In this document: in pieces, positions 11,514 to 28,612 of the stretch
Position numbering within the stretch: the stretch's first letter is position 1
Layout of the letters: every line of letters begins with the position of its first letter
Origin: Thermoanaerobaculia bacterium
GTDB lineage: Bacteria > Acidobacteriota > Thermoanaerobaculia > UBA5066
Assembly: GCA_038245905.1 (NCBI GenBank)
Contig: JBBRRY010000021.1
Location: 1 to 64,000, forward strand
DNA: 64,000 bases
Direction: 5' to 3'
Made by a program: the position numbers and the translations under genes
The notes under the pieces: generated by a model
Databases searched by the model: none
The model's input: the letters and a program-made list of their open reading frames with translations, nothing else
Told to the model about the DNA's origin: nothing

Positions 11514-13223
11514 GTGCCGGCGGGATCGGTGAGGCGTCGTCCTCGTCGCGCACTCCCGAATGTGCGCTGCCGTGCCTTCTGCCTTCTCGCGGTCGTGACG
11601 CTCGTTCCAGGTCTGGCCCGCGCTGCCACGAGAGCCGACGTCCTTGAGGCCGCGGAGCGGGCGGCCGACAGACTTCCGGCGATCCGGTCCGAGGGGCGCC
11701 GCTGGGAGGACGTACCCTATCTCGTCGGCCTCCTCCTCGTCGCCGAGCAGCTCGAGAAAAGCACGCCGGGCGCGGGACGACGCTGGATCGATCGCGCTGC
11801 GGCGATCGTTGGAGGCGGAGATGCCCCCATCGGCAACGGCGACTACGCCGGTTACGCGCAGGCGGCGATGGATCTCTACCGGCTCACGCCGCCCTCAGAC
11901 ACGGCGAGAAGAGCCGCCTTTCTTAGTGCGACGGAAGGTCCGCTCCGGTTTGCGGCCTCCGCGCTCCACGCCGCTCCCTCGAACAGCCCGCCGCTCGCGG
12001 ACTGGTGGGTGGACGGCGGGTATGGCACGCGCTTCTGGGTGGACGACCTCTTCACGATGCCTCCCGGACTCGCGATGCGCGGCGCGAAGCGCGACGGCCT
12101 CCCTGGAGACGCGGCGGCGCGCGACCTCGCCTACGAGTGGATCGAGGCCTATCTCTACGACCACCGCCCCGCGTCGGGGGACGCGCCGGCTGCCGGCGTC
12201 CCTGCCGAGCGCCGGCGGGCGGGGCCGCTTCTCTGGGATCCCGCGCTCGCGCTCTTCCGCCACGACACGGATTCCGGTCGGTCGCGCTACTGGGGGCGGG
12301 GGAACGGCTGGGCCGCATGGGGTCTCGCGCGCTCGGCCGGGTATCTCGACAATCCGTACGGCGGGAACCGCTACGACGCCGTTCTCGACAGGACGGGGAT
12401 TCGCCAGGTGCTCGTACGATTCTCGGTGGCTCTCGCGGCGCGTCGCTCGGACGACGGCGGCTGGCCGACGGACCTCGCGCACCCCGAAGACTGTCCCTCG
12501 AGCGAGACTTCGGCAACGGGGCTCATCACGTACATGCTCGCGAAGGGCGTCAACGAAGGCTGGCTGGATCGGACCGCCTTCACGCCGGTCATCCTGAAGG
12601 CGTTCTCTCTTCTCCTCGGGCGGCTCGACGCGCATGGGGATGTGTCCGGCATCCAGCCGCCCGGGACCGGCCCTGATTGCGGCGTGACGACGTCGAGCGA
12701 CCCCGCCGTGGACGTCTCTTACGGAGTGGGAGCGTTCCTCCTCGCGGCGTCCGAGATCCTGAAGCTTCCGGACGCGGACCTCGCGATGCTGGAAGGCGTC
12801 GCGGCGCGGCCGGTCGATCGGGCGTTCAGCGCCCGCGTGTGGATCGTCGTGCCGATGGACGACCCCGACGCGATCTCGTCCGGTATCGACGACGGCGACG
12901 GGTTCCGCGGCTTCCGCCGGTCCTTGCGCGCCGTCGCCGTTCCCCTCTGGACCGCGCTCGCGCCCGGAGAAGACACGACGCGCGTGAACGAACGGGAGGG
13001 CTTCCTCCGGATCGGCGGGAGAAATCTGTCTCCCGTGTCCGCGGCGATGGCGTTCGAAATCCGCTCCGCGGACGGAAGTCTCGCGGAGAGGTCGACGCTG
13101 GATCTGCCGCCGGGGGGCTCGGCCTTCGTGACACTCTTCGCGGCCGAGGGATCGACGGTGATCCTCTCCAACGTCTCAGCGGATGCCGGGGTGGCGCCGG
13201 CCGTCGTGTCCGAGTCCTGTTGA
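11514..13223 (+). CDS. Secreted GH88/GH105-like glycoside hydrolase with C-terminal extension (start may be GTG 11562)
   Basis: WVDDLF, WGRGNGW, ETSATG, YGVGAFLLA motifs; signal-like N-terminus. Confidence 0.7.
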   Translation: MPAGSVRRRPRRALPNVRCRAFCLLAVVTLVPGLARAATRADVLEAAERAADRLPAIRSEGRRWEDVPYLVGLLLVAEQLEKSTPGAGRRWIDRAAAIVGGGDAPIGNGDYAGYAQAAMDLYRLTPPSDTARRAAFLSATEGPLRFAASALHAAPSNSPPLADWWVDGGYGTRFWVDDLFTMPPGLAMRGAKRDGLPGDAAARDLAYEWIEAYLYDHRPASGDAPAAGVPAERRRAGPLLWDPALALFRHDTDSGRSRYWGRGNGWAAWGLARSAGYLDNPYGGNRYDAVLDRTGIRQVLVRFSVALAARRSDDGGWPTDLAHPEDCPSSETSATGLITYMLAKGVNEGWLDRTAFTPVILKAFSLLLGRLDAHGDVSGIQPPGTGPDCGVTTSSDPAVDVSYGVGAFLLAASEILKLPDADLAMLEGVAARPVDRAFSARVWIVVPMDDPDAISSGIDDGDGFRGFRRSLRAVAVPLWTALAPGEDTTRVNEREGFLRIGGRNLSPVSAAMAFEIRSADGSLAERSTLDLPPGGSAFVTLFAAEGSTVILSNVSADAGVAPAVVSESC

Positions 13224-13713: not shown

Positions 13714-14061
13714 TCAGTCGATATCGAGCGCGGCCTTCAAGCCTTGCATGACGAGAAAGAGCTGCTCCGAGGTCAGGGAACCGGCTTTCTCCACGAGCTT
13801 CCCGCGATCGAGAGTCGTGACCTGATGACAGAGGGCGAAACCCGCTCTTTTCATCCCGCCCGCGCCTTTAGGCAAGTGGACGGCGGTCGGGCCCCTGGCG
13901 CCCTGGCTCTCCGAGGTGGACACGGGGATTACGATCACAGAGCGCCAGCCCGGTGTCTCGTTGAAACCGTCGTTCGAGACGACGATCACCGGGCGTCGAC
14001 CCCGCTGCTCGGAGCCCGAACGGGGTTCGAGGTCGGCCCAGTGAACTTCGCCGCGCTTCAA
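13714..14061 (-). CDS. PemK/MazF family toxin
   Basis: KRGEVHWADL..GSEQRGRRPVIVVSND; TTG start overlaps the antitoxin stop (TTGA). Confidence 0.9.
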   Translation of the reverse strand: MKRGEVHWADLEPRSGSEQRGRRPVIVVSNDGFNETPGWRSVIVIPVSTSESQGARGPTAVHLPKGAGGMKRAGFALCHQVTTLDRGKLVEKAGSLTSEQLFLVMQGLKAALDID

Positions 14062-14327
14062 CGTTTCTTGCGGCTCCCCCGCAGGTGCTCGACCGCGGCC
14101 TTCTCGAGTCCGGCGTCGAGATCGGCAGTGGACCCCGCGGTGCTCGCGGCGTAGACGGCGATCTCCTCCCGTACGGACTGGCGGCGCTTCTCGCGGAGCC
14201 ACTCCTCGATGGCGTCACGTGCGACGCTGGTCGCGGGCCGGCTTTCGCGAGCGGCTTCCTCCTTCAGGCGGTCATAGGTCTCGCCGGTGAGAGGAAGGTG
14301 AAAATTGCGAAGCGGAGAAGAAGGCAT
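14058..14327 (-). CDS. Putative ribbon-helix-helix antitoxin
   Basis: 89 aa directly upstream of the toxin; NFHLPL strand followed by two helices. Confidence 0.8.
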   Translation of the reverse strand: MPSSPLRNFHLPLTGETYDRLKEEAARESRPATSVARDAIEEWLREKRRQSVREEIAVYAASTAGSTADLDAGLEKAAVEHLRGSRKKR

Positions 14328-14373: not shown

Positions 14374-14374
14374 T

Positions 14375-14788
14375 GTGTCCTTATGGGCCCCCGGCGCCGC
14401 GGACGCGCTGCTCGACCGTGGCCTTCTCGGCCCCGGAGTGGCGCGCCTCCGCCTCGTTCCGAAATCCCGGCCACCCGCCCCCCAGAGGCCGGCTCCTGCC
14501 CGGGAGCGCGCGCTCGCGGAGAAACTTGGGAAGAAGAAGTCGGCCGAGGCGAAGAAGCTCCTCGAGGCGCGAACCCGGGAGACGCAGCGGGCGCGCGCAA
14601 GTCTCGCGGCGGCGGAGAAGGCCCTCGAGGCCGCGCGGCAGAGGCAGCAGGAGCTCGAGACCGCACTCTCGTCCGCGATGAGGCTTGAAAGAAAGTTGCG
14701 TGAGGAGGTCGCAACCGCGCGCAAGGCGCTGGAAGGCGCGGAGGCGGCCGAAGTCGCGACGGGCTCCTCAGCGGGGCGGAAGGAGTAG
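14375..14788 (+). CDS. Hypothetical coiled-coil protein, possibly a gene fragment
   Basis: Ala/Glu/Lys/Arg-rich helical ORF filling the gap; no clear SD or start. Confidence 0.35.
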   Translation: MSLWAPGAADALLDRGLLGPGVARLRLVPKSRPPAPQRPAPARERALAEKLGKKKSAEAKKLLEARTRETQRARASLAAAEKALEAARQRQQELETALSSAMRLERKLREEVATARKALEGAEAAEVATGSSAGRKE

Positions 14789-16276
14789 GAGGTTCCCCGT
14801 CCGCGGGTAACGCCGGAGGACCGAGAATCCTCGCCTCCCTGCCTCGGCAGCTTCCGCTTCGGTCACGTAGCAGAGGTCGTAGTCCCACCTGTCCGTTTCG
14901 AGTCGTTCGACCGGAGCCAGCCAGTAAAGGCCCTCGACGACACGCATGTAGTTCAGGGCCGGCTCGCAATGGGAGATCGAGCCAACTCGTGTCGCTCGCG
15001 TACGGCCCTCCCGCCTTGTGTATTCGTCGAGGTCCGAGACGACGAGGCGCACATCCGCGTCGAACCACCAGAGGGCCGACCGGTTCGTGTCGGCGACGCG
15101 CACGAGGTGAATCGACGCGAGAAGAGCGAGTACGCCGAGGAGGGCCGTCGCCGCCTTCCGAGCGGCCGGAGGCGCAGTTGCCGCCCCGAGCGTCGCCGCA
15201 AGAACGAAGAGAGGGATGAACACCGTCGCGATCCGATCCGTGGGATAGCGAAGCCCGAGAAAAAGGCTCTGCGATTTCACGGCGAGAGCGGTCAGGGCGA
15301 GAAGTGAAATGAAGGCAAGGGCGACGAGATCGGACGGGCCGCGCTGCCGACGGAACAGAAGGCGAATCCCGGCCCATGAGACGAGAACCAGAGATCCCGC
15401 GACGAAGAGGAGAAGCGGTTTTTCGAAGCGTCCGAGCCAGGGGGCGGGGAGTAGCGTGAGCCAGACGAGATTCTCGACCGTGTCGTGCCAGATGCCCGTC
15501 GTTCCTCCCGCGTAGAAGCCGCCGGACTTTCCGATCCTCCAGAGAATGCCCGTGAGACCCATCGCGAGGGCTGCGGATGTGACGAGGAGGGGGACGAGGC
15601 GTCGCCCGAATCGGCGCAGGAGCGTTGGGCCGGACCCGGCATTCCACGCGCGAACGGCGTGAATGACGACGAGGATGGCCGCCATCGCGGCGAACACGTC
15701 GAGAGCGACGAATTGGGAAAGGACCGCGAAACACAGGAGAGAGAGCGCGAACCACTCGTTTCTCCTTGGCGAATCGGACTTCTCGATCGTGAGAGAGGCC
15801 AGGAGGAGCGCCGGAAGAATGAGTCCAAGGCAGAGGCCGTAACCGCGTGCGAGGGAGAACATTTCGAGGAGGTGACGGTTCGCCGAGGCGAGCACGAGAC
15901 CTGAGAGCGCGAGGACAGGCGGCGCGTGTCGGCGGAGGAGGAGCCAGAGCGATGCGAGATACGAAGCCAGCGCGAGAAGGTTCGGGAGGCGGAGAGGCGC
16001 CTCGCCCGGGCCGAGAAGAGCCGATGAGACTTTCATCAGGACGGTGTTGAGGAGATGGTTGTTCGCGGGACCCGGGCCTTCGAAAAGGAAGATGGCCCGC
16101 CATGGCGCCGTCGACCAGTGAAGGAAGGTGAAAGCCTCGTCGTGGGTGATCGGAACGAGGACGGCGCGCGCCACGGCGAACGCGAGGACGGACGTGCAGT
16201 AGACGATTGCGACGATGTCGTACTGAATTCCAGGGTGGCGGGGCCCTTGGCCCGGCCCCGACGGCGCGGCGCTCAC
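14768..16276 (-). CDS. GT-C fold (ArnT/PMT-like) polytopic membrane glycosyltransferase
   Basis: THDEA after TM1, NNHLL, LRLPNLL, ARGYG motifs; many TM segments; GTG start overlaps the speD stop (GTGA). Confidence 0.7.
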   Translation of the reverse strand: MSAAPSGPGQGPRHPGIQYDIVAIVYCTSVLAFAVARAVLVPITHDEAFTFLHWSTAPWRAIFLFEGPGPANNHLLNTVLMKVSSALLGPGEAPLRLPNLLALASYLASLWLLLRRHAPPVLALSGLVLASANRHLLEMFSLARGYGLCLGLILPALLLASLTIEKSDSPRRNEWFALSLLCFAVLSQFVALDVFAAMAAILVVIHAVRAWNAGSGPTLLRRFGRRLVPLLVTSAALAMGLTGILWRIGKSGGFYAGGTTGIWHDTVENLVWLTLLPAPWLGRFEKPLLLFVAGSLVLVSWAGIRLLFRRQRGPSDLVALAFISLLALTALAVKSQSLFLGLRYPTDRIATVFIPLFVLAATLGAATAPPAARKAATALLGVLALLASIHLVRVADTNRSALWWFDADVRLVVSDLDEYTRREGRTRATRVGSISHCEPALNYMRVVEGLYWLAPVERLETDRWDYDLCYVTEAEAAEAGRRGFSVLRRYPRTGNLLLLPPR

Positions 16277-16626
16277 CGGGCGTCGGCGCCCCGGATGCGC
16301 TCTTCGACCGTCGAACGTTGCGCCCCGAGCGCCTTCGCGAGCGCGTCGACCGCCTTCCGCGCGCGCGCGACGTCGCCGCACGTGAAGAGGTCCACGGCGG
16401 CCTCGCCGCGCTCGGGCCACGTGTGGATCGTGAGATGCGACTCCGAGATGACGACGACGCCACTGACGCCCTGAGGGCTCAGTCGGTGGATGTGGATGCC
16501 GAGGACATTCGCGCCCATCGCCTTCACGGCGTCCACGAGGAGCGTCTCGACGAGGATGGGATCGTCGAGCGTCGCGAACGGCGCGCCCGCGACGTCGAGG
16601 AGAAAGTGCACGCCGAGGACCTTCAT
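16273..16626 (-). CDS. speD: S-adenosylmethionine decarboxylase proenzyme (class 1B)
   Basis: PQGVSGVVVISESHLTIHTWPE...DLFTCG; ATGA overlap with the upstream gene. Confidence 0.92.
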   Translation of the reverse strand: MKVLGVHFLLDVAGAPFATLDDPILVETLLVDAVKAMGANVLGIHIHRLSPQGVSGVVVISESHLTIHTWPERGEAAVDLFTCGDVARARKAVDALAKALGAQRSTVEERIRGADAR

Positions 16627-17708
16627 CGAATTCCCATCGTGGCTACGGCGGCCTCGTTCGCGGGCTTGACCTTCCAGAGGAACGCGTCCCAGACGTAGTG
16701 CGTCGCCTGCGGGAGCGCGAGGAGCGGCACGATCAGCGCGAGGAGCAGCACGCCGGGATCGAGGGCGGGTCCGGGGAAGAGCACGGCGTGATCGTGCCAG
16801 ACGAGGCGGTCCCAACCCCACTCTTCCGCGAAGGCGACGAGGAGAAGGGGCGCGAGGAAGAGGACGAGCTTCGGAGCGAACCGGTCCGCGAGGGAGGGCG
16901 GTTCTCCGGCTTCGAGGCGTGCCGCCGCGCGCGCCTTCGACGTGAACCACACGAGGCCCATGTACGGGATGCCGTGGACGAAGACGTTCAGGACCGTGAA
17001 CGCGTAGTCCGAGTCGAAGACGACGATGCCGAGATGCCACGTCGCAGCGGTCGAAAAGACGATCAGGATCTTGCCCCACGAAATGGGACGGCCCGCGCGG
17101 GCGCGTGCGAGCTCCTTCCCGATCCACGCGGCAAGGATGCCCGCGTAGATCACGAAAGCGGCGCGGCTGACGCCGTCAGGAAGGCCCGACAGGAAGTCGC
17201 CCTTCAGGAACCACTGGAATTTCCGGGGCAGGTGCGCGTGCCAGAAGAGAAGCGGAGTCAGCGTCGCGCCGTAAATCACGGCGGCGTCGAGGAAACGCCC
17301 GCCTTGACCTTCGCCGTTCTTCCGGCGGTACAGAGCGACCCAGCCGTACTGCTGCCGGATGAAGTGAAACACCGCGAGGTAGGCCAGGACGCGCCAGAAG
17401 AAGAGCGGCGAAACGGAGTACGCGGCCACGCCGGCGCACCACGCCGCGATAGGAACGCCGGCGTAGAGCCAGAGGCGCCGGGAGACCTCATGGCCATCCG
17501 AGAGAACGCGCCATCCCGTGGACCAGACGTGCGCCACGTCCACGCCCACGACGGCGACGAGGAACAGCCACGGCGGAGCGTCTCCATCGAGGAGGCCGGT
17601 CGCGTGACCGATGCCGAGGAACAGCAGGGCGACCGCCGTCGACCCTCCGAAGAGGAGAAGATCGGTGCGCCTGCCGAAGAGCCACGGGGAATTCACGGCG
17701 CCGGGCAT
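16623..17708 (-). CDS. Uncharacterised polytopic membrane protein with four His motifs
   Basis: DVAHVWST, HFIRQQYG, HGIPY, THYVWD in or near TM helices. Confidence 0.8.
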   Translation of the reverse strand: MPGAVNSPWLFGRRTDLLLFGGSTAVALLFLGIGHATGLLDGDAPPWLFLVAVVGVDVAHVWSTGWRVLSDGHEVSRRLWLYAGVPIAAWCAGVAAYSVSPLFFWRVLAYLAVFHFIRQQYGWVALYRRKNGEGQGGRFLDAAVIYGATLTPLLFWHAHLPRKFQWFLKGDFLSGLPDGVSRAAFVIYAGILAAWIGKELARARAGRPISWGKILIVFSTAATWHLGIVVFDSDYAFTVLNVFVHGIPYMGLVWFTSKARAAARLEAGEPPSLADRFAPKLVLFLAPLLLVAFAEEWGWDRLVWHDHAVLFPGPALDPGVLLLALIVPLLALPQATHYVWDAFLWKVKPANEAAVATMGIR

Positions 17709-17709
17709 G

Positions 17710-19383
17710 TTAGCTCGCGGCAATCGAGGCGAACCGCGCGCCGCGTGCGGCGAGGATCCCCTCGGCCGCGCGAACCCCGGCGTCCTGCGCCTCCTCGAAG
17801 AGCGGGAGCCCGGCGGAGTCGGCGTGCGCGAAGAAGACTCCGCCCTCGGGGGCGAGGTGGCGGACGGGGCTCGAGAGGAAGCCCGGCGTGGGCCGCGCCA
17901 TCGCATGGCCCCAGCGCACGACGTCCAGGTTCATGACGAGACCGGGAAGATCGTGGTGCGCCCGGGAGAGATCCGCGAGGGCGGCCGAAGCGAGGTCGTC
18001 CCAGGAGGCTCCGAGAAGCTTCGCGCGCGCGGCCGCCGGCGCTTCGTCCGTCAAGGGAAGGTAGTACGTGAAGACGGTCGGTCCCTGCTCCGGGCCGGAT
18101 TGATGGGTCGCGACGACGTAGCCGAGGGAGCGCGAATCGTGAAGGACGTTGTCCCACGCGAGGGGAAAACCGCGCTCCTCGGGCCGGGCGCGTAGCGTGA
18201 GGTTTGCGACCAGCCACGGCGCCCACGACATGTCCGCGAGGAAGGCGGGCGGCGCCGCGCGCCACGGCGCGAAGACACGCGCCGCGGCGAATTTCGGCAG
18301 CGCGAGGATCGCGTGAGCGGCCTCGACCGCGACGACTTCGTTGCGAGCCGCGTCGAGGAAGCGCAGCGTCACCGGCGCGCCTGCGTTCGGTGCCGGGGCG
18401 ACGTCGAACACGAGGGAGGCCGGCGCGAGGCGTCCGTCCGCGCTCTTCGCGAGCAGCGCGACGAGGCGGCCGTTGCCTTCGGGCCACGTGAGGAATTCCG
18501 AAGGATCCTCGTCGTCGTCTTCGCCGGGCAGCCGGGCCGCATGGTAGTGGAGGCCCGCCCACGCCGACGTGCCGGCGAGGTTCGTGCCGAAGTCGTCGCG
18601 GCACCCGTACTCCGTGAACCAGAGGAGCCGCGGCGACGTGAAACCCTTCGCGCGCATCCACTCGGCCATCGTGAGACGGTCGAGAGCAACGAGGTCGGCG
18701 TCGTCGGACGAGAGGCGCGTCGGGATCGCGAACGCCCGCCGGCCCTGCGCGTCCCTCCGGGCGGCGAAGGCGTTCGCCTCGCGCTGGAAGCGCGCGAGCT
18801 GCGCGAGGTCCTCGGGCGAGGCGCCGTCCCGCGGGTAGAGGCCCTGGCGCCACGTGTAGCCGAAGAAGAGGCGCTCCTCCGGCTCGCGGCAGAGCATCTC
18901 CTCGGCCCACTCGGGAGCGCCGTCCGCGTCGCGGGAGACGAGGGCGCCGGCTTCTTCGAGAACCGCCTCGAGGGCGCGGTTCGGTGAGGCGGGGACGGGC
19001 ACGTAGTGCGCGCCCCAAGGAAAAGCGGAGACGTTGTTCGCGCCAGACCGGGCGGTGCCGCCGACCTCGTCCTCGAGGTCGTAGACGCGGAAGTCACGGT
19101 CGCCCGCCCTCGCGAGGCACCACGCGGCCGAGAGACCGGAAACCCCGGCGCCCACGATCGCCGTGCCGACACGCTCCGTTCGGACGGCGGGACGCGACAG
19201 GAGATCGCCCGACCGGAGAAGGTGCCCGCGCGCGGCGTCCGGCCCCACGATGCGGCCGCCGAAGGGCAGGCCACGAGCCTCCGACTTCCCACAAGCAGTG
19301 AGAGCCGCGGCGAGGGCGGAAAGCGCGGGGAGCCCGACGAGCGACGCGATCGCGTCGCGGCGGCTCAGTCGAAGCGCTTCCAC
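17710..19383 (-). CDS. FAD-dependent oxidoreductase (amine oxidase-like), predicted Tat lipoprotein
   Basis: SRRDAI twin-Arg, LTAC lipobox, GAGVSG Rossmann motif, GG..WGAHY, RWGHAM, LFEEA. Confidence 0.85.
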   Translation of the reverse strand: MEALRLSRRDAIASLVGLPALSALAAALTACGKSEARGLPFGGRIVGPDAARGHLLRSGDLLSRPAVRTERVGTAIVGAGVSGLSAAWCLARAGDRDFRVYDLEDEVGGTARSGANNVSAFPWGAHYVPVPASPNRALEAVLEEAGALVSRDADGAPEWAEEMLCREPEERLFFGYTWRQGLYPRDGASPEDLAQLARFQREANAFAARRDAQGRRAFAIPTRLSSDDADLVALDRLTMAEWMRAKGFTSPRLLWFTEYGCRDDFGTNLAGTSAWAGLHYHAARLPGEDDDEDPSEFLTWPEGNGRLVALLAKSADGRLAPASLVFDVAPAPNAGAPVTLRFLDAARNEVVAVEAAHAILALPKFAAARVFAPWRAAPPAFLADMSWAPWLVANLTLRARPEERGFPLAWDNVLHDSRSLGYVVATHQSGPEQGPTVFTYYLPLTDEAPAAARAKLLGASWDDLASAALADLSRAHHDLPGLVMNLDVVRWGHAMARPTPGFLSSPVRHLAPEGGVFFAHADSAGLPLFEEAQDAGVRAAEGILAARGARFASIAAS

Positions 19384-20915
19384 TCTCCCTCGTACGTCCT
19401 CACGAGGACCTGGTCGTTCAGGCGGTTCACGGGCGCGTCGTCGATCCGCGCCACGTCCGGGCCGAAGACGAAAAGCCCCGGCAGGAGGTCGGTCGAGAGG
19501 GCGCGCAGGCCCTCGGGAAGACGCGGCTTCACGTCGGGCGGCGTGGCCGCCGCGAGGACGAATCCCCAGTCGCCGAAGGAGGGCACCGCGATGTGGTACG
19601 GGCGTGTCGCGAAGCCGGCCGCGCGGAGCGTCGCGTCCACGATCCAGAAGCTGCGGCGGGCGAAGAGGGGAGACGTCGACTGGACGCAGAGAACGCCGTC
19701 AGGATCCAGCTTCCGTTTCACGAGGGAATAGAACCGCGACGTGTAGAGCTTGCCGACCGCGTAGCTGTTCGGGTCCGGAAAATCGACGAGAACGACGTCG
19801 AAGAGGTCGGGCTCCTTCTCGATCCAGATCATAGCGTCCTCGTTGACGACGCGGACTTTCGGAGAGAGGAGCGAGCCGCCGTTCAGCGCGAGGAAAAGAG
19901 GATGCGTCATCGCGAGGCGCGTCATTTCGGGATCGAGGTCCACGAGCGTCACGCTCTCGACCTCGGGGTGCTTCAGGATCTCCCGCACGGCGAGGCCGTC
20001 GCCGCCGCCCAGCACCGCCACGCGCCGAGCGCGCGGCGCGGCCGCGAAGGCCGGGTGGACGAGGGCCTCGTGGTAGCGGTATTCGTCCACGGACGAGAAC
20101 TGAAGGTGCCCGTTCAGGAAGAGCTGGAAGCCCGCCCGGTTGCGCGTCACGACGATGCGCTGGTAGGCCGTGGACCGGGCCACGACGACTTCGTCGGCGT
20201 ACTGGCTCTCCTCGGCCACCGCCGTGAGCCGGTCCGCGGCGACGAACGCGGCGAGGAGGATCGCCGTGACGATGCCGGCCCGCGCGAAGAGCCCGCCCGG
20301 CGGCCCGACCCGGTCGCGAAACAGGCGGATCGACCAGAACGCGACGGCCGCGTTCAGTAGGCCGAACAGGACCGACGTGCGCGTTAGCCCGAGGCGCGGA
20401 AGAAGAACGAGCGGGAAGAGGATCGAGGCGGCGAGGGATCCGAGGTAGTCGAAGGTCAGGACTTGCGCCACGAGGTCGCGGAATACGACGGTGTCCTTGA
20501 GGAGGCGCATGAGGAGCGGGATCTCGAGGCCGACGAGCGTTCCGATCGCGACGACGACTCCGTAGAAGACGGGCGCAAACCAGCGGGGCGAGGAGAACGC
20601 GAAGAACAGGAGCGGCGCCGAGAGCCCGCCCACGAACGCGACCGCGATCTCCGCTTCCACGAAACGCCGCGCGACTCCGCGGACGACGAAGCGCGAGAGG
20701 AACGCGCCGAGCCCGAGCGAGCTGAGGTAGACGCCGATGACGAGCGAGAACTGCGTGACCGAGTCGCCGAGCAGATAGCTCGCGAGCGCGCCGGCGACGA
20801 GCTCGTAGATGAGGCCGCAGGACGCGATGGCGAGGACGGTGAGGTAGACCGGCCCCGGCCGCAGGGCCGGGACCGCGCCGGAACCGGGCCCGGCGCCCTG
20901 TGCGCCGTCGCCCAC
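19365..20915 (-). CDS. speE: Membrane-bound polyamine aminopropyltransferase (spermidine synthase-like, about 7 N-terminal TMs)
   Basis: YRYHEALVHP, LGGGDG, VDLDP, DFPDP, VPSFGDWGF; hydrophobic N-terminal ~230 aa. Confidence 0.9.
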   Translation of the reverse strand: MGDGAQGAGPGSGAVPALRPGPVYLTVLAIASCGLIYELVAGALASYLLGDSVTQFSLVIGVYLSSLGLGAFLSRFVVRGVARRFVEAEIAVAFVGGLSAPLLFFAFSSPRWFAPVFYGVVVAIGTLVGLEIPLLMRLLKDTVVFRDLVAQVLTFDYLGSLAASILFPLVLLPRLGLTRTSVLFGLLNAAVAFWSIRLFRDRVGPPGGLFARAGIVTAILLAAFVAADRLTAVAEESQYADEVVVARSTAYQRIVVTRNRAGFQLFLNGHLQFSSVDEYRYHEALVHPAFAAAPRARRVAVLGGGDGLAVREILKHPEVESVTLVDLDPEMTRLAMTHPLFLALNGGSLLSPKVRVVNEDAMIWIEKEPDLFDVVLVDFPDPNSYAVGKLYTSRFYSLVKRKLDPDGVLCVQSTSPLFARRSFWIVDATLRAAGFATRPYHIAVPSFGDWGFVLAAATPPDVKPRLPEGLRALSTDLLPGLFVFGPDVARIDDAPVNRLNDQVLVRTYEGEWKRFD

Positions 20916-20919
20916 GCGA

Positions 20920-21144
20920 TCAGCCTCCCATGACGGCGGCCGCGATGATCATCGCCATGGCGATCACGATCGACCCGATCACGATGCCGAGCGCCGTGTT
21001 CTGGTCTTCCTCCATCTCCTTTTTCAGAGAGAAGGGGAGTATTCGCGGCAGGATCGCGAAGAAGATGCCGAGAAGCACCATTCCGAGGACCGAGAACACG
21101 ACCGTCGACGTCACCTGATGCCCGTGTAGCTGCCACCAGTCCAT
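20920..21144 (-). CDS. DUF350 family small membrane protein
   Basis: Two TMs around KEMEEDQNTALGI; TAATG overlap with the upstream stop. Confidence 0.85.
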   Translation of the reverse strand: MDWWQLHGHQVTSTVVFSVLGMVLLGIFFAILPRILPFSLKKEMEEDQNTALGIVIGSIVIAMAMIIAAAVMGG

Positions 21145-21320
21145 TACTTGCCTCCGCTCCAGAAGTGCCACGTCCGATAGCCGCCCGCGTTACGGGCACC
21201 CGGAGGCAGCGTGTTGCGTTGCGTGTTTCCGGCCGTTTCCCACCCCGAGAACGCAGCGAGGGTGTACGCGAGGAGGAGCGCGCCGCCGAAGACCTGAAAG
21301 AAGCGTCTCATCGGATTCAT
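21144..21320 (-). CDS. 58-aa membrane-anchored peptide ending GGYRTWHFWSGGK
   Basis: GGAGG SD, one hydrophobic segment, stop overlaps the DUF350 start. Confidence 0.75.
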   Translation of the reverse strand: MNPMRRFFQVFGGALLLAYTLAAFSGWETAGNTQRNTLPPGARNAGGYRTWHFWSGGK

Positions 21321-21330
21321 CCGGCCTCCC

Positions 21331-23415
21331 TCATTCGTCGTCGCCCTTGTCATCGTCGCGCTCGCCGCCCGAGCTCGTGAAGTCGCTTTCGGACCAGCGG
21401 CGCCCCTCGAACGTGAGCTTCCTGAAGCTGAGCACCGTCGGGATCACGAGAAGCAGCAGGATGACCCAAACCAGATGCGAGACGTGCGGCACGCCGCTCG
21501 TGAGCCGCACGCGGAACGAGGGCGGCGCCTTGCCGGCCTCCGTTTCGGGATCGAGCCTCAGGACCCACTTGCCCGCCGGAATGCGCGGTACGTAGATCCG
21601 CCGGTTCTGCCTGCCTTCGCTCCAGCTCTCACCGCCGTCGACACCCGCGTAGCGGTCGGAGATCATGTCGAACGACCGGACCTCGCCGGTGGCCTCGGAA
21701 ATCAGGTTGAAGCTGACGGCGACCCAGTTGTTTTCCGTCGGCGCCCAGAGATCCGCGGCGAGATTCGCGCCGCGTTTCGTCTCGAACGGTGCCGAGACGA
21801 TCGCGCGCGCGGCCGCGAGCGCATTCTCGGCGGCCTCCCGGGCCGCGATGGGGTTCGCGGGCTTCGGGAGCGACTCGTCGTTCTGCGACCAGTCGGCCGA
21901 GGTCGACGTCTTGCTCCCGCGCGCCGCGTAGATGCCGCGCGCGGAATCCACGAGGTCGAAGGTCTGGTCGTAGACGACGGCATGCGGCGTAATGAGGCGC
22001 GCCAGGAAGAAGACGACGATCGACGCGAGGGTCAGGATCCAGGCCGTCTTCCACCAGATGCGGGCCGTCTCGGCGTGGGGCCAGGGCTGGCACGCTCCGA
22101 CGCCCTCAGGCGACGGAAGCGGTTCCTTGAGCGCGAAGGCGGCCTCGATCTCCGCGGGCGGGACGTAGGCGCCCTCGGTCCAGGCAATTTCCTTCTGCGC
22201 CTTCTCCATGGAAAGCATGCGAGGCGGGCTGACGAAGTCCGTGGCCTCGGTCGTCTCTCCGGTCCGTACGGTCCAGTAGAACTCACCGAGCACTCCGGCA
22301 ACGCGGGCCTTGTTGCGCGAGAACACGCGGTAACTATTGTTCCGGAAGGCCGCCACTTTCGGTCCGTGCTCCACCTCGCCGGCGGGCACGGGCTCGAGCA
22401 GGGTGTAGTGGCCGTTCGACTCCGCGAGCCAGTGGTAGGCCTCCGACTTTTCATCCTTGAGGAGGTATTCCGTCCAGAAGTAGTCCTCGCCGTCGGAGGA
22501 GCACATCTTCTGGACCGCTCCGAGAATGGCATAGCGATGGCCTCGCAGGTTTCCTTCCGCGCCGAGCGGCAAGAGCGGCTTGAACGGCACCGCGGCGAGC
22601 TTCTCGAGCACCGTGAACTTCGAAGGAGGGCCCGTCTCCTTGCGGTCGGCCGAACCCAGGAGCGAGCCGCAGAACGGGCACGCGATCCTGACGGTGTTCG
22701 CCGGGTCCTTCAGCTGGAGCGCGCCGCCGCAGTTCGGGCAGTTCAGCGCGAGGGCCCTGGTGGAGACCGTGCGATCCGACCACGCGACGAGCTCCGCGAT
22801 GCCCAGGCTCTCGAGCGCCACGGGCTTGCCCACGTAGAAGCCGTCGAGAGAGGGGCCGTCGCCGTAGTCGAGCGTCGCGAGACTCCCATCCGCTCCGGAG
22901 AGATCCGCGAAGCGGAAGACGCTCCCGGGCGGAGCGACGAACGGCAGCTCGCCCTCGGCGGAGGAATATGTGGCGTCGCGGACTTCGGTGATCGCGAAGC
23001 TGCCGTAACCGCCGAGGTCGAGCGTCTCCCCGGGCGACAGCGCCTCGAACGCCGGGACCGCCGGGGGCTTCATCGGCGTCATGAGCCAGAAGCCGCCCTG
23101 CGCCTCGGCGAGCCATCCCCAGGTCCCGTCCGTGAATCCGACGTACCACTCGTCCCAAGTGCCCTCGCCCGTCGAGAGCTGGAGCCGCCCCGCGATGTGG
23201 AACGGCCGCGTCCCCTTCTGCGGGCGCGCGTCCATCCCCACTTTGAAGGGAGACGAGGTTGGCGTGAGCTCGGCGACCGTGCCGATGGCCTCGAGGTCCG
23301 CGCCCTTGCGCGCGATCGCGGACTTGCACTGCGGGCAGATGGAGACGAGCGAAGCCCCGGTCCGAAACCGGACCAGCGCCCCGCAGTTCGGACATTGCGC
23401 CGCACGCGCGCTCAA
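21331..23415 (-). CDS. DUF4178 domain membrane protein with two Zn-ribbon modules
   Basis: CPNC/CPQC and CPNC/CPFC pairs, each followed by a WxEW/Y...WL.E...GELP/GEFYW module; two C-terminal TMs; FEGRRWSESD tail. Confidence 0.85.
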   Translation of the reverse strand: MSARAAQCPNCGALVRFRTGASLVSICPQCKSAIARKGADLEAIGTVAELTPTSSPFKVGMDARPQKGTRPFHIAGRLQLSTGEGTWDEWYVGFTDGTWGWLAEAQGGFWLMTPMKPPAVPAFEALSPGETLDLGGYGSFAITEVRDATYSSAEGELPFVAPPGSVFRFADLSGADGSLATLDYGDGPSLDGFYVGKPVALESLGIAELVAWSDRTVSTRALALNCPNCGGALQLKDPANTVRIACPFCGSLLGSADRKETGPPSKFTVLEKLAAVPFKPLLPLGAEGNLRGHRYAILGAVQKMCSSDGEDYFWTEYLLKDEKSEAYHWLAESNGHYTLLEPVPAGEVEHGPKVAAFRNNSYRVFSRNKARVAGVLGEFYWTVRTGETTEATDFVSPPRMLSMEKAQKEIAWTEGAYVPPAEIEAAFALKEPLPSPEGVGACQPWPHAETARIWWKTAWILTLASIVVFFLARLITPHAVVYDQTFDLVDSARGIYAARGSKTSTSADWSQNDESLPKPANPIAAREAAENALAAARAIVSAPFETKRGANLAADLWAPTENNWVAVSFNLISEATGEVRSFDMISDRYAGVDGGESWSEGRQNRRIYVPRIPAGKWVLRLDPETEAGKAPPSFRVRLTSGVPHVSHLVWVILLLLVIPTVLSFRKLTFEGRRWSESDFTSSGGERDDDKGDDE

Positions 23416-23477: not shown

Positions 23478-25721
23478 TCAGCCCCCAGCCGGGCGCTCGG
23501 GGTAGAGCCGCTCGAACTCGGCGTCACCGTGGAGAATCTCGAGCTCGGGGTCCTGGCGCGCCCAGACGGCGTCCTTGAAGCCCGCGTCCCAGGCCTTCCG
23601 GAGCGCGTCCATGGCTTCCGGTTTCCTCTTCAAGAGCGCGTAGGCGCAGGCGGCGTTGTAGAGAACAGTGGCTTCGTTCGGGCGGAGTGCCACGGCAAGG
23701 TTCGTCTCCCGCATGGCGTCTTCGGTCCGGTCGAGGAACGCGTACTCGCCGGCGAGCTGAATGCGCGCGCGCGCGTCCTCGGGAACCTGCTTCAGGTGGT
23801 TCTCGAGAGTCGCGACCATCCGCTGGCGGATATTCCGCAGCCTCTCGCTCTTTCCGAGCGCCCCGAGAGCGTTTTCGATCGGCACGTAGACGTTATAGTC
23901 GTCGCCGCCCGCTGCCAGTGCAGCGTCGGCGACGTCGGCGAGCTCCTGATAGCGGCCCGAGGCGAACAGCGTGCGGCCGAGCAGGTAGTAGGCGCCTTCG
24001 CAGTCGCTCTTGCGCTCGACGGCCTGCCGGGCGCAGCGGAGCGCATCGTCGTATTGCGCATCGGCGTAGAGGATCCAGGCTTGGGCGACGAGCACCTCGG
24101 GAAGTTGAGGCCTCAAGGCGACGGCTTTCTGTGACGCCGAGATGGCGCGATTCAGCCACACGGGATCCCGCCCGTAGTTGTAGTGGTTCTGGGCGCAGAC
24201 GTTCGCGATCGCGGCGTACGCGAGCGCGAAGCCCGGGTCGAGCGCGACGGCGTTCTCGAACATCTGGAGCGCGAACTCGAAGTCCTGGCGCGTGAGGCGA
24301 CGCGCGTAGCTCTTCCCGCGCAGGTAGAGGTCATACGCTTGCAGGCTCTCGGTCGGCTTGGCCGCGAGGGCCTCTTCCTCCTGGGGCGTGAGCGTGACCC
24401 GGAGGGCCTCCGCGATCTTGCGTGCGATCTCGTCCTGAACCTCGAAGATGTCCTGCATTTCGCGGTCGTATCTCTCCGACCAGAGCGGAAAGTCGGTGTG
24501 CGTGTCCACAAGCTGCGCGTTGATGCGCAGCCGGTTGCCGGCGCGGCGCAAGCTCCCCGTGAGGACGTAGGCCGCGTTGAGCTGCTGCCCGATTTGCGCG
24601 GGCGTGACCGGCTTGTCCCGATACGCGAGGACCGTGGGCCGCGAGAAGATGCTCAGGCCCTTGATCTTCGAGAGCTCCGTGATGATGTCCTCGGTGATCC
24701 CGTCCCGGAAGTACTCGTCTTCCTTCACGCCGGAGAGGTTCTCGAAGTAGAGGACAGCGATCGACTTCTCGGCCTTGCGCGTTCCGCCCCCACGCGAGTC
24801 GCTTTTTTCGGCCACGCGCTTGCGGCCCGAGTCCATGTCCCGTTTCAGACGAGCGAGATCGGTCTTCAGGTCCGTCGCGGTCTGGTAGCGCAGGTTCCGG
24901 TCCTTCTCGAGAGCCTTGTCGAGAATGCGGCTGAGCTCCGGAGGAAGGGCGGGGTTTCTCTGGGCCGCCGGAAGCGGATCGCGGTTGAGGATCGCGTCGA
25001 ACACGACGGCCGACGTCTCGCCCGGAAAAGGCAGTGTTCCTGTGGCGAGCTGGTAGAGGACGGTCCCAAGAGAGAAGAGGTCTGTGCGGCCGTCGACGGG
25101 CTGCCCGCGCGCTTGCTCCGGCGACATGTACGACACGGTGCCCATCGAGGTGCCGGGCGACGTGAGATCGCTTCGGGCGCCCACGGTCTCGAGACGCGAG
25201 ACTGCCCCGCCGGCGCCCCGATGGACGCTCTCGATGCGGGCGAGGCCGAAATCCAGAATCTTGACCTGCTCGCGCGCGTTCACGAAGATGTTCGCGGGCT
25301 TGACGTCGCGGTGCACGATGCCTCGGGCGTGCGCGGACTCGAGGGCGTCGGCGATCTGGACGCCTACGGCGAGCAGCTCTTCGAGCTCGAAGACGGGCCG
25401 CGCCACCATGATCTGCGCGAGCGTCTGGCCTTCGAGGAGCTCCATGACGATGAACAGCTGGTGCTCGTGCTCCTCGATGGCGAAGACGGTGCAGATCCCC
25501 GGATGGTTCAGCGCGGACGCCGCGCGCGCCTCGCGCTGAAAGCGCTCGAGCGACGGAACGTCCTGGGCGAGATCGGGCGGAAGGAATTTCAGCGCGACCC
25601 GGCGCCCGAGACGCGAGTCTTCCGCTTCGTAGACGACTCCCATTCCGCCGCTGCCGAGCCGGCGAACGACCGAATAGTGCGAGACGGTCGTCCCGATCAG
25701 GGGATCCGGTTGCGCAGACAC
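23478..25721 (-). CDS. Ser/Thr protein kinase with TolB-N-like (SIAVLYF) domain and TPR repeats
   Basis: GSGGMG, HRDVKPAN, DFG, YMSPE; SIAVLYFENLS..YFRDGITEDII; YNAAC TPR region. Confidence 0.9.
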   Translation of the reverse strand: MSAQPDPLIGTTVSHYSVVRRLGSGGMGVVYEAEDSRLGRRVALKFLPPDLAQDVPSLERFQREARAASALNHPGICTVFAIEEHEHQLFIVMELLEGQTLAQIMVARPVFELEELLAVGVQIADALESAHARGIVHRDVKPANIFVNAREQVKILDFGLARIESVHRGAGGAVSRLETVGARSDLTSPGTSMGTVSYMSPEQARGQPVDGRTDLFSLGTVLYQLATGTLPFPGETSAVVFDAILNRDPLPAAQRNPALPPELSRILDKALEKDRNLRYQTATDLKTDLARLKRDMDSGRKRVAEKSDSRGGGTRKAEKSIAVLYFENLSGVKEDEYFRDGITEDIITELSKIKGLSIFSRPTVLAYRDKPVTPAQIGQQLNAAYVLTGSLRRAGNRLRINAQLVDTHTDFPLWSERYDREMQDIFEVQDEIARKIAEALRVTLTPQEEEALAAKPTESLQAYDLYLRGKSYARRLTRQDFEFALQMFENAVALDPGFALAYAAIANVCAQNHYNYGRDPVWLNRAISASQKAVALRPQLPEVLVAQAWILYADAQYDDALRCARQAVERKSDCEGAYYLLGRTLFASGRYQELADVADAALAAGGDDYNVYVPIENALGALGKSERLRNIRQRMVATLENHLKQVPEDARARIQLAGEYAFLDRTEDAMRETNLAVALRPNEATVLYNAACAYALLKRKPEAMDALRKAWDAGFKDAVWARQDPELEILHGDAEFERLYPERPAGG

Positions 25722-25762: not shown

Positions 25763-28612
<2,850 letters not shown>

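Follow-up and report, generated by a model that had tools for sequence, protein, structure and literature searches.

A membrane-bound relative of spermidine synthase in a Thermoanaerobaculia bacterium and the lysine-ended small proteins linked to it

Bacterial operons in which a spermine/spermidine synthase fused to seven transmembrane helices (7TM) stands with DUF350 (YjfL), a lipoprotein and DUF4178 were described in mSystems in 2024 (PMC11237479). The available part of that paper also reports a band-7/SHOCT variant with an S-adenosylmethionine (SAM, AdoMet) decarboxylase as well as a polyamine oxidase, and a parallel group that has a glutathionylspermidine-synthetase-like ligase, DUF350 and DUF1190. 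It proposes that other substrates are aminopropylated in envelope-stress systems; this part names no substrate, terminal lysine or topology, and "lysine" has 0 matches in one supplement file. Here we analyze a locus of this kind in a 64,000-nucleotide stretch of DNA (hereafter the window) from a Thermoanaerobaculia bacterium (contig JBBRRY010000021.1). Seven of its eight genes form a widespread conserved bacterial operon around a membrane-bound spermidine synthase relative, and the locus is a further member of the operon class already in print; its value is that a short peptide, the lysine-ended tail of a co-encoded microprotein, makes the substrate question addressable. A first-pass annotation of this DNA had proposed that an envelope target is aminopropylated in a stress response. 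We retain the general idea, which is not new, because PMC11237479 suggests as much and a second paper, in its available part and citing Li 2019, states that bacterial membrane-aminopropyltransferase fusions are not involved in spermidine or spermine synthesis (PMC12803844).

All eight frames are on the minus strand at 14768..23415 (Table 1), and the frames, their span and all seven junctions read from the sequence are as first annotated. The DUF4178 stop is separated from the microprotein ATG by a 10-nucleotide gap, the microprotein and DUF350 genes meet at TAATG, and a 4-nucleotide gap leads from DUF350 to the aminopropyltransferase gene, which overlaps the flavoenzyme gene by 19 nucleotides. 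The His-motif gene follows the flavoenzyme gene after a 1-nucleotide gap, and is joined to speD at ATGA, as is speD to the GT-C-like gene at GTGA. A promoter/terminator scan scored the coding strand no better than shuffles. Pfam matches include PF13785 (twice, DUF4178), PF03994 (DUF350) and PF01593/PF13450 (flavoenzyme); the microprotein, the His-motif protein and the GT-C-like protein have no Pfam or NCBIfam matches of their own. At least one hydrophobic segment was found in seven of the eight products, SpeD being without any, in line with the earlier statement that seven of them are membrane-bound or exported.

Conservation was assessed in the 80 best (L001-L080) of 558 confirmed loci, from a scan with one genome per species; co-occurrence was counted by tblastn, and many of these loci are cut by contig ends. 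Actinobacterial and Bacillota operons (DUF4247 type) lie outside the sample. The neighborhood check that had been suggested with the first-pass annotation found the flavoenzyme in 61 of the 80 loci, DUF4178 in 56, DUF350 in 56, SpeD in 37 and the His-motif protein in 27. Its view that the locus encodes more than a solitary housekeeping spermidine synthase is borne out: the accessory genes co-occur across phyla, and the predicted orientation of both the catalytic domain and the oxidase is toward the envelope. The nearest loci are from Acidobacteriota, chiefly Thermoanaerobaculia, and two loci of the same genus have the seven genes in identical order. The enzyme stands apart from the operon in 18 of the 80 loci, which had counted against linkage; in split-operon genomes (five of those loci and five others), DUF4178 and a lysine-tailed partner were found elsewhere in 10 of 10. 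PRK03612 matches above the cut-off are present in 50 of 301 genomes of the same phylum and in 31 of 301 proteobacterial genomes. Eight of the stand-apart myxobacterial enzymes (L025, L027, L028, L031, L037, L041, L052 and L058) are preceded by a conserved gene of approximately 120 codons (cluster c10).

The eighth gene, with which the annotation had completed an eight-gene unit including a glycan-transfer step, was rejected as an operon member. The GT-C-like gene was found in 0 of the 80 loci and is unmatched in the approximately 7 kb past speD in the two same-genus loci. In L001 (~90% DNA identity), the alignment skips from window position 16269 to 14373 over 48 bases, and the gene and its convergent neighbor (window 14374-16268) are missing from the same spot. 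Its GC content at third codon positions is 0.77, compared with 0.86-0.91 in the five large operon genes measured. The GT-C-like gene is thus a passenger. The GT-C label is indirect: 2 of 30 homologs have PF13231 and one is named mannosyltransferase, and the protein itself has no PMT_2-type match.

The small hydrophobic open reading frame (ORF) that follows DUF4178 ends in lysine in all 56 DUF4178-bearing loci of the reference set. Forty-eight of these partners were picked by a rule blind to the last residue, and eight by eye where the rule had chosen the DUF4178 end or nothing. Among the 687 long ORFs of the same loci, 35 (~5%) have a terminal lysine. In 30 further loci of the same phylum, the partner was found in 27 and is lysine-ended in all 27 (it was not seen in 3). 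Proteobacterial loci, with enzymes down to 29% identity, have a lysine-ended partner in 24 of 30, 18 found directly (one repeats L078) and 6 after the flanks were widened; the remaining 6 have no nearby partner. The residues preceding the lysine vary (GG, GH, FH, YH, TH, SG, FG, RG, RV and RI). The large lipoproteins of CesT/PspA-type operons, unlike the microprotein in both size and sequence, also have a terminal lysine in 5 of 5. The first-pass annotation had named the GGK-tailed peptide and had not singled it out as the target. Counted from its second in-frame methionine, the start used by homologs, the microprotein has 55 residues. In L135, L217, L221 and L246, DUF4178 is fused to a lysine-ended tail in one protein, which hints that DUF4178 and the tail work together. 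The PspA-type operons L121, L125 and L129 include a TrkA/RCK potassium channel (L125 scanned), and such a channel is noted in a ligase-type operon in the available part of PMC11237479.

The terminal residue is different in the ligase operons. Among 22 PF03738 loci from 151 proteobacterial genomes, 16 encode stand-alone ligases and 6 long amidase-fused enzymes. The partners of the 16 stand-alone ligases, picked by eye, end in GG (13), GS (2) or SS (1) and none in lysine; no tailed partner was seen for the 6 amidase-fused enzymes. Escherichia coli YgiB and YjfM likewise have Gly-Gly ends and lie beside genes that RefSeq names peptide--spermidine ligase, and the available part of a recent paper leaves the natural substrate of the YgiC/YjfC-type ligase open (PMC11762307). 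Sequence likeness between YjfM and the microprotein was undetectable in a direct comparison. Ligases require a free carboxylate, transferases a free amine, and the terminal residue changes accordingly. A spermidine amide on Gly-Gly and an aminopropyl-lysine after Gly-Gly would be near-equivalent cationic tips.

The enzyme scores 650.9 bits against PRK03612 (cut-off 472; residues 23-514), and is below threshold for the canonical SpeE model TIGR00417 (138.5 against a cut-off of 249.55). Its structural model (predicted local distance difference test score 93.5) shows seven helices followed by a spermidine synthase fold, and Thermus SpeE (1uir) matches at Z 36.0 with a root-mean-square deviation (rmsd) of 2.2. 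Among 98 homologs, Q252, Q272, D277-E278, Y281-H282, G303-G305-D306-G307, D328, D360, D378 and D381 are invariant, and those that bind decarboxylated SAM (dcSAM) or are catalytic align with solved aminopropyltransferases. Residues 16-205 resemble one half of a major facilitator superfamily (MFS) transporter: OxlT matches at Z 18.6 (rmsd 2.5, 177 aligned) and many MFS chains at Z 15-18.6, with a Pfam MFS_1 E value of 0.33. Loops 2-3, 4-5 and 6-7 carry on average 6.1 Lys/Arg versus 1.8 elsewhere, a bias that is in the same direction in 97 of 98 homologs and likewise on 158 rows, and helix 7 is hydrophobic in 96 of 98 homologs. Both ends of an MFS half are cytoplasmic; therefore, helix 7 should place the catalytic domain outside. 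The model fold and the positive-inside charge bias together predict an extracytoplasmic catalytic domain. Because SpeD has no signal, dcSAM would then have to cross the membrane. E38, E89, E131 and D156 are conserved inside the membrane domain; these acidic residues would match a positively charged cargo, and two halves paired as a dimer would form a full transporter.

DSSP assigns four strands preceded by a helix in the model, versus six strands in canonical enzymes, in which an N-terminal hairpin shuts the putrescine groove (PMC6514230, available in part). The hairpin was not seen as strands in the model, and the structural alignment reaches residue 4 of 1uir; the difference is suggestive only. 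A complex prediction of enzyme residues 20-516 with SAM and the microprotein (score 0.02, mark 0.32) is evidence neither way.

The flavoenzyme matches PF01593 with 41 bits (against 19.8). Of 41 homologs, 40 carry a twin-arginine motif and 26 a strict lipobox pattern. The cysteine shows at least 90% conservation. Relatives of solved structure include monoamine, amino-acid and polyamine oxidases as well as spermidine dehydrogenase and LSD1, and the matches fall mostly over the start of the protein, which binds flavin adenine dinucleotide. The export signals would place the oxidase, as a predicted substrate of twin-arginine translocation (Tat), on the same side as the catalytic domain. SpeD matches TIGR03330 (124.8 against a cut-off of 75.65) and carries a Glu-Ser-His motif, presumably that of self-cleavage. 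It is the sole PF02675 match in the genome (96% complete), in which no short soluble PF01564 protein was found; speD lies at either end of the operon, depending on the lineage. The same genome has two more long spermidine-synthase-like frames (G000:C12:8878-12027, 1050 aa, and G000:C68:3-1850, 616 aa), which could draw on the same single SpeD. In genomes G258 and G110, a second, stand-apart enzyme has an oxidase near it.

The His-motif gene is optional yet dependent on the aminopropyltransferase system. Its 20 close orthologs in the 301 genomes of the phylum all occur in genomes with a PRK03612 match (for one of these, the match is divided between two contigs and falls below the cut-off), and 18 lie about 5 kb or less from PRK03612 on the same contig; 13 additional genomes have distant paralogs only. 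H60, H115, H157, H245, H337, D57 and D341 are near-invariant. The 27 aligned members have no common Pfam or NCBIfam family, the named homologs are all "hypothetical" and their Atlas clusters are without names. Foldseek returned nothing for the fold at E 0.001, and the best VIA match, to rhodopsins, has a Z of 6.9, below the level that is meaningful for helical bundles. The genes next to the distant paralogs show no common theme, and two long fusions (peptidase M1 and LptD) are single cases each. The idea that the protein binds metal and works as a membrane enzyme, at a step following the oxidase, is only a guess. In L213 (G108:C891), a distant paralog follows an aminopropyltransferase and a speD-like frame, and a second branch of the family thus seems to be linked to the system as well. 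A Na+/H+ exchanger gene (PF00999; one member scanned) lies on the opposite strand downstream of the oxidase gene in L007, L009, L010, L011, L014, L015 and L016, and comes before the His-motif gene or speD in loci that show them.

We lean slightly toward a scheme in which the terminal lysine is aminopropylated outside the cytoplasm, with the Tat-exported flavin oxidase as eraser or maturase. Cytoplasmic SpeD, judged by its family, would make dcSAM. The half-MFS domain seen in the model would export it, probably as a homodimer and perhaps against methylthioadenosine, and the catalytic domain at the outer face would transfer the aminopropyl group onto the side-chain amine of the C-terminal lysine of the co-encoded microprotein or lipoprotein. 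Since a terminal lysine's side chain equals the aminobutyl half of putrescine, a spermidine-like tip would result on the Gly-rich tail. The flavin amine oxidase, which has an export signal, may remove or oxidize this tip, and DUF350 and DUF4178, found elsewhere with band-7/PspA scaffolds, may hold the tagged tail, or read it, within envelope-stress complexes. The YgiC/YjfC-ligase operons might reach a like product by another route, with spermidine joined to the Gly-Gly tail. A bolder version would make both routes, lysine aminopropylation (with self-exported dcSAM and reversal by the oxidase) and ATP-grasp formation of spermidine-Gly-Gly, sources of one widespread polyamine C-terminal tag on membrane-anchored proteins that feeds DUF350/PspA/band-7 envelope-stress complexes; this we put forward tentatively, and would sooner doubt than assert.

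Several observations weigh against this scheme. The topology is based on a model and on charge bias, and loop 5-6, assigned outside, has about 1.5 Lys/Arg. Some equivalent of the hairpin may remain, as the alignment with 1uir starts at residue 4. The oxidase does not adjoin the PspA-type operons with lysine-ended lipoproteins, SpeD adjoins the enzyme in only 37 of the 80 loci, and some SpeD homologs are ornithine or arginine decarboxylases (PMC10407285, available in part). The L221 fusion shows two helices in a simple scan, which would leave its tail inside, although a long hydrophobic stretch may conceal a third helix. The two routes of the joint tag would differ in compartment, because ATP-dependent ligases should act in the cytoplasm. 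The loci are rich in kin, so the counts overstate independence. Sequence conservation shows that the terminal lysine is important, and does not indicate which enzyme acts there.

The enzyme might instead produce a small polyamine or an aminopropylated lipid at the outer face, with the oxidase turning the product over. The lysine-tailed protein would then be a structural or regulatory subunit, its tail occupying the acceptor site or bound to the membrane. The invariance of gate-loop D378 and D381 and of the remaining small-amine site would fit this reading, as would the nearest solved relatives of the enzyme (triamine and agmatine aminopropyltransferases) and the presence of polyamine oxidases and spermidine dehydrogenase in the oxidase family. 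It leaves unexplained, however, why lysine ends go with the transferase and Gly-Gly ends with the ligases, and we regard it as unlikely. The statement in the available part of PMC12803844 that membrane-aminopropyltransferase fusions are not involved in spermidine or spermine synthesis also argues against it, with coverage of the exact subfamily unconfirmed. The same statement bears on a simpler possibility, ordinary spermidine synthesis by a membrane-tethered SpeE with SpeD, the neighbors being regulatory hitch-hikers. The NCBIfam name of the enzyme is polyamine aminopropyltransferase, the genome has one SpeD and lacks a short soluble PF01564 protein, and a 2025 paper, in its available part, still calls Mycobacterium tuberculosis Rv2601 a spermidine synthase (PMC11841054). 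Given an outward-facing catalytic domain, as predicted, and the tight linkage to DUF4178, DUF350 and the lysine tail even in split operons, we consider ordinary synthesis very improbable.

Other explanations give the terminal lysine or the fold a different meaning. The lysine could be a cross-linking handle, to peptidoglycan or through an aldehyde formed by the flavoenzyme, with the transferase modifying another molecule. The terminal lysine of Braun's lipoprotein (Lpp) is attached to peptidoglycan, and a membrane-anchored protein with an invariant free terminal lysine outside the cytoplasm resembles that pattern; the exported oxidase is a neighbor in 61 of the 80 loci. However, the lysine tail is also found in PspA-type operons without an adjacent oxidase, and its occurrence goes with the transferase, not with DUF350 operons as a whole, which makes a handle improbable. 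The spermidine-synthase-like domain could also be a SAM-dependent methyltransferase acting on the tail lysine, just as human METTL13 uses a similar domain to methylate the end of a protein. METTL13 (5wcj, Z 16.3) and other methyltransferases are indeed among the fold matches, and SpeD is absent from 43 of the 80 fetched loci. Aminopropyltransferases nevertheless match far better (Z 28-36), the acidic D306 of the Gly-rich motif is invariant, and lineages differ in which end of the operon speD occupies; methylation thus seems the most improbable of these explanations. Aminopropylation of the terminal lysine remains the reading that we prefer.

In many genomes, PRK03612 enzymes carry the annotation spermidine synthase. 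Because a single terminal residue switches with the type of enzyme, the question of what they act on, and what E. coli YgiC/YjfC act on, can be put to short peptide assays. If the scheme is correct, lysine aminopropylation would join the bacterial protein modifications, and a SAM-derived donor would be exported for use in the envelope; if the joint tag is also correct, the substrates of PRK03612 and YgiC/YjfC would be named together. An aminopropyl group adds +57.058 Da, and a carbamidomethyl group or a glycine +57.021, a difference of 0.037 Da; therefore, routine proteomics could have missed the adduct. In the literature searched, which excludes most subscription journals, no title or abstract start proposes a terminal-lysine substrate; absence from print is not established.

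The genes around the operon are included in Table 1. The Ser/Thr kinase gene upstream adjoins the operon at high identity in L005 only and was left out of the membership count, and we take the 949-aa protein beyond it to be aconitase A. The 137-aa ORF runs head-on into the end of the GT-C-like gene, overlapping it, and both are gone from L001.

Table 1. Operon genes and neighboring features in the window
Feature	Position	Strand	Description
DUF4178 protein, 694 aa	21331..23415	-	Zinc-ribbon-like CxxC pairs, two DUF4178 stretches, two membrane helices, acidic tail
Membrane-anchored microprotein, 58 aa	21144..21320	-	Basic Gly/aromatic tail ending in Gly-Gly-Lys; proposed acceptor
DUF350 (YjfL family), 74 aa	20920..21144	-	Two-helix membrane protein; also in ligase-type operons
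PRK03612 aminopropyltransferase, 516 aa	19365..20915	-	Six-helix MFS half (about 16-205), seventh helix, spermidine-synthase fold predicted extracytoplasmic
Flavin amine-oxidase-family protein, 557 aa	17710..19383	-	Twin-arginine signal and lipobox-like Cys
His-motif polytopic membrane protein, 361 aa	16623..17708	-	Optional operon member
SpeD, class 1b AdoMet decarboxylase proenzyme, 117 aa	16273..16626	-	
GT-C-like membrane protein, 502 aa counted from the GTGA overlap	14768..16276	-	Lineage-specific passenger
Soluble Ser/Thr kinase with TPR repeats	23478-25721	-	62 nucleotides upstream of DUF4178, same strand
949-aa protein	25763-28612	-	Syntenic upstream of the operon in L003, L004, L005
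137-aa ORF	14375-14788	+	No Pfam match; Ala/Glu/Lys/Arg-rich coil-like second half
PemK/MazF-family toxin gene (PF02452)	13714-14327	-	Overlaps small upstream gene resembling antitoxin; kept in L001
GH88-family glycosyl hydrolase	11514-13223	+	

Among the known systems, the clusters that Li et al. 2019 (Biochem J, PMID 31467246) reportedly described, with an AdoMet decarboxylase, a fusion of a membrane domain to a spermidine-synthase-like domain, and DUF350, and with the substrate left open, are said to have the same enzyme architecture and gene linkage as the locus described here. Canonical SpeE and the Thermus aminopropyltransferase (3o4f, 1uir) share the catalytic fold and the dcSAM-binding and catalytic residues, but are soluble and cytoplasmic, with a closed polyamine groove and without a membrane domain. 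The operons of PMC11237479, as far as its available part describes them, have in common with this locus the 7TM synthase, DUF350 and DUF4178, and in the band-7 variant also AdoMet decarboxylase and polyamine-oxidase-like genes. Here the lipoprotein is replaced by the 58-aa microprotein and the His-motif membrane protein is added. Between its flanking Ser/Thr kinase and GT-C-like genes, the operon itself lacks CesT/PspA and band-7 genes (the rest of the genome was not searched); related loci have such genes. Precedents for the proposed chemistry include diatom silaffins, whose lysines carry aminopropyl chains (PMC3820600, available in part), and SUMO-spermidine conjugates, with polyamine-tipped Gly-Gly C-termini (PMC12270671, available in part), yet these are eukaryotic and involve different enzymes, and internal lysines or conjugation at the carboxyl group. 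The E. coli ygiB-ygiC and yjfIJKLMC operons resemble the present one in DUF350, in PspA-type scaffolds and in a membrane-anchored partner with a basic Gly-rich tail, and differ in that they use ATP-grasp ligation to a carboxylate and a DUF1190 lipoprotein, with Gly-Gly ends where the partner here ends in lysine.

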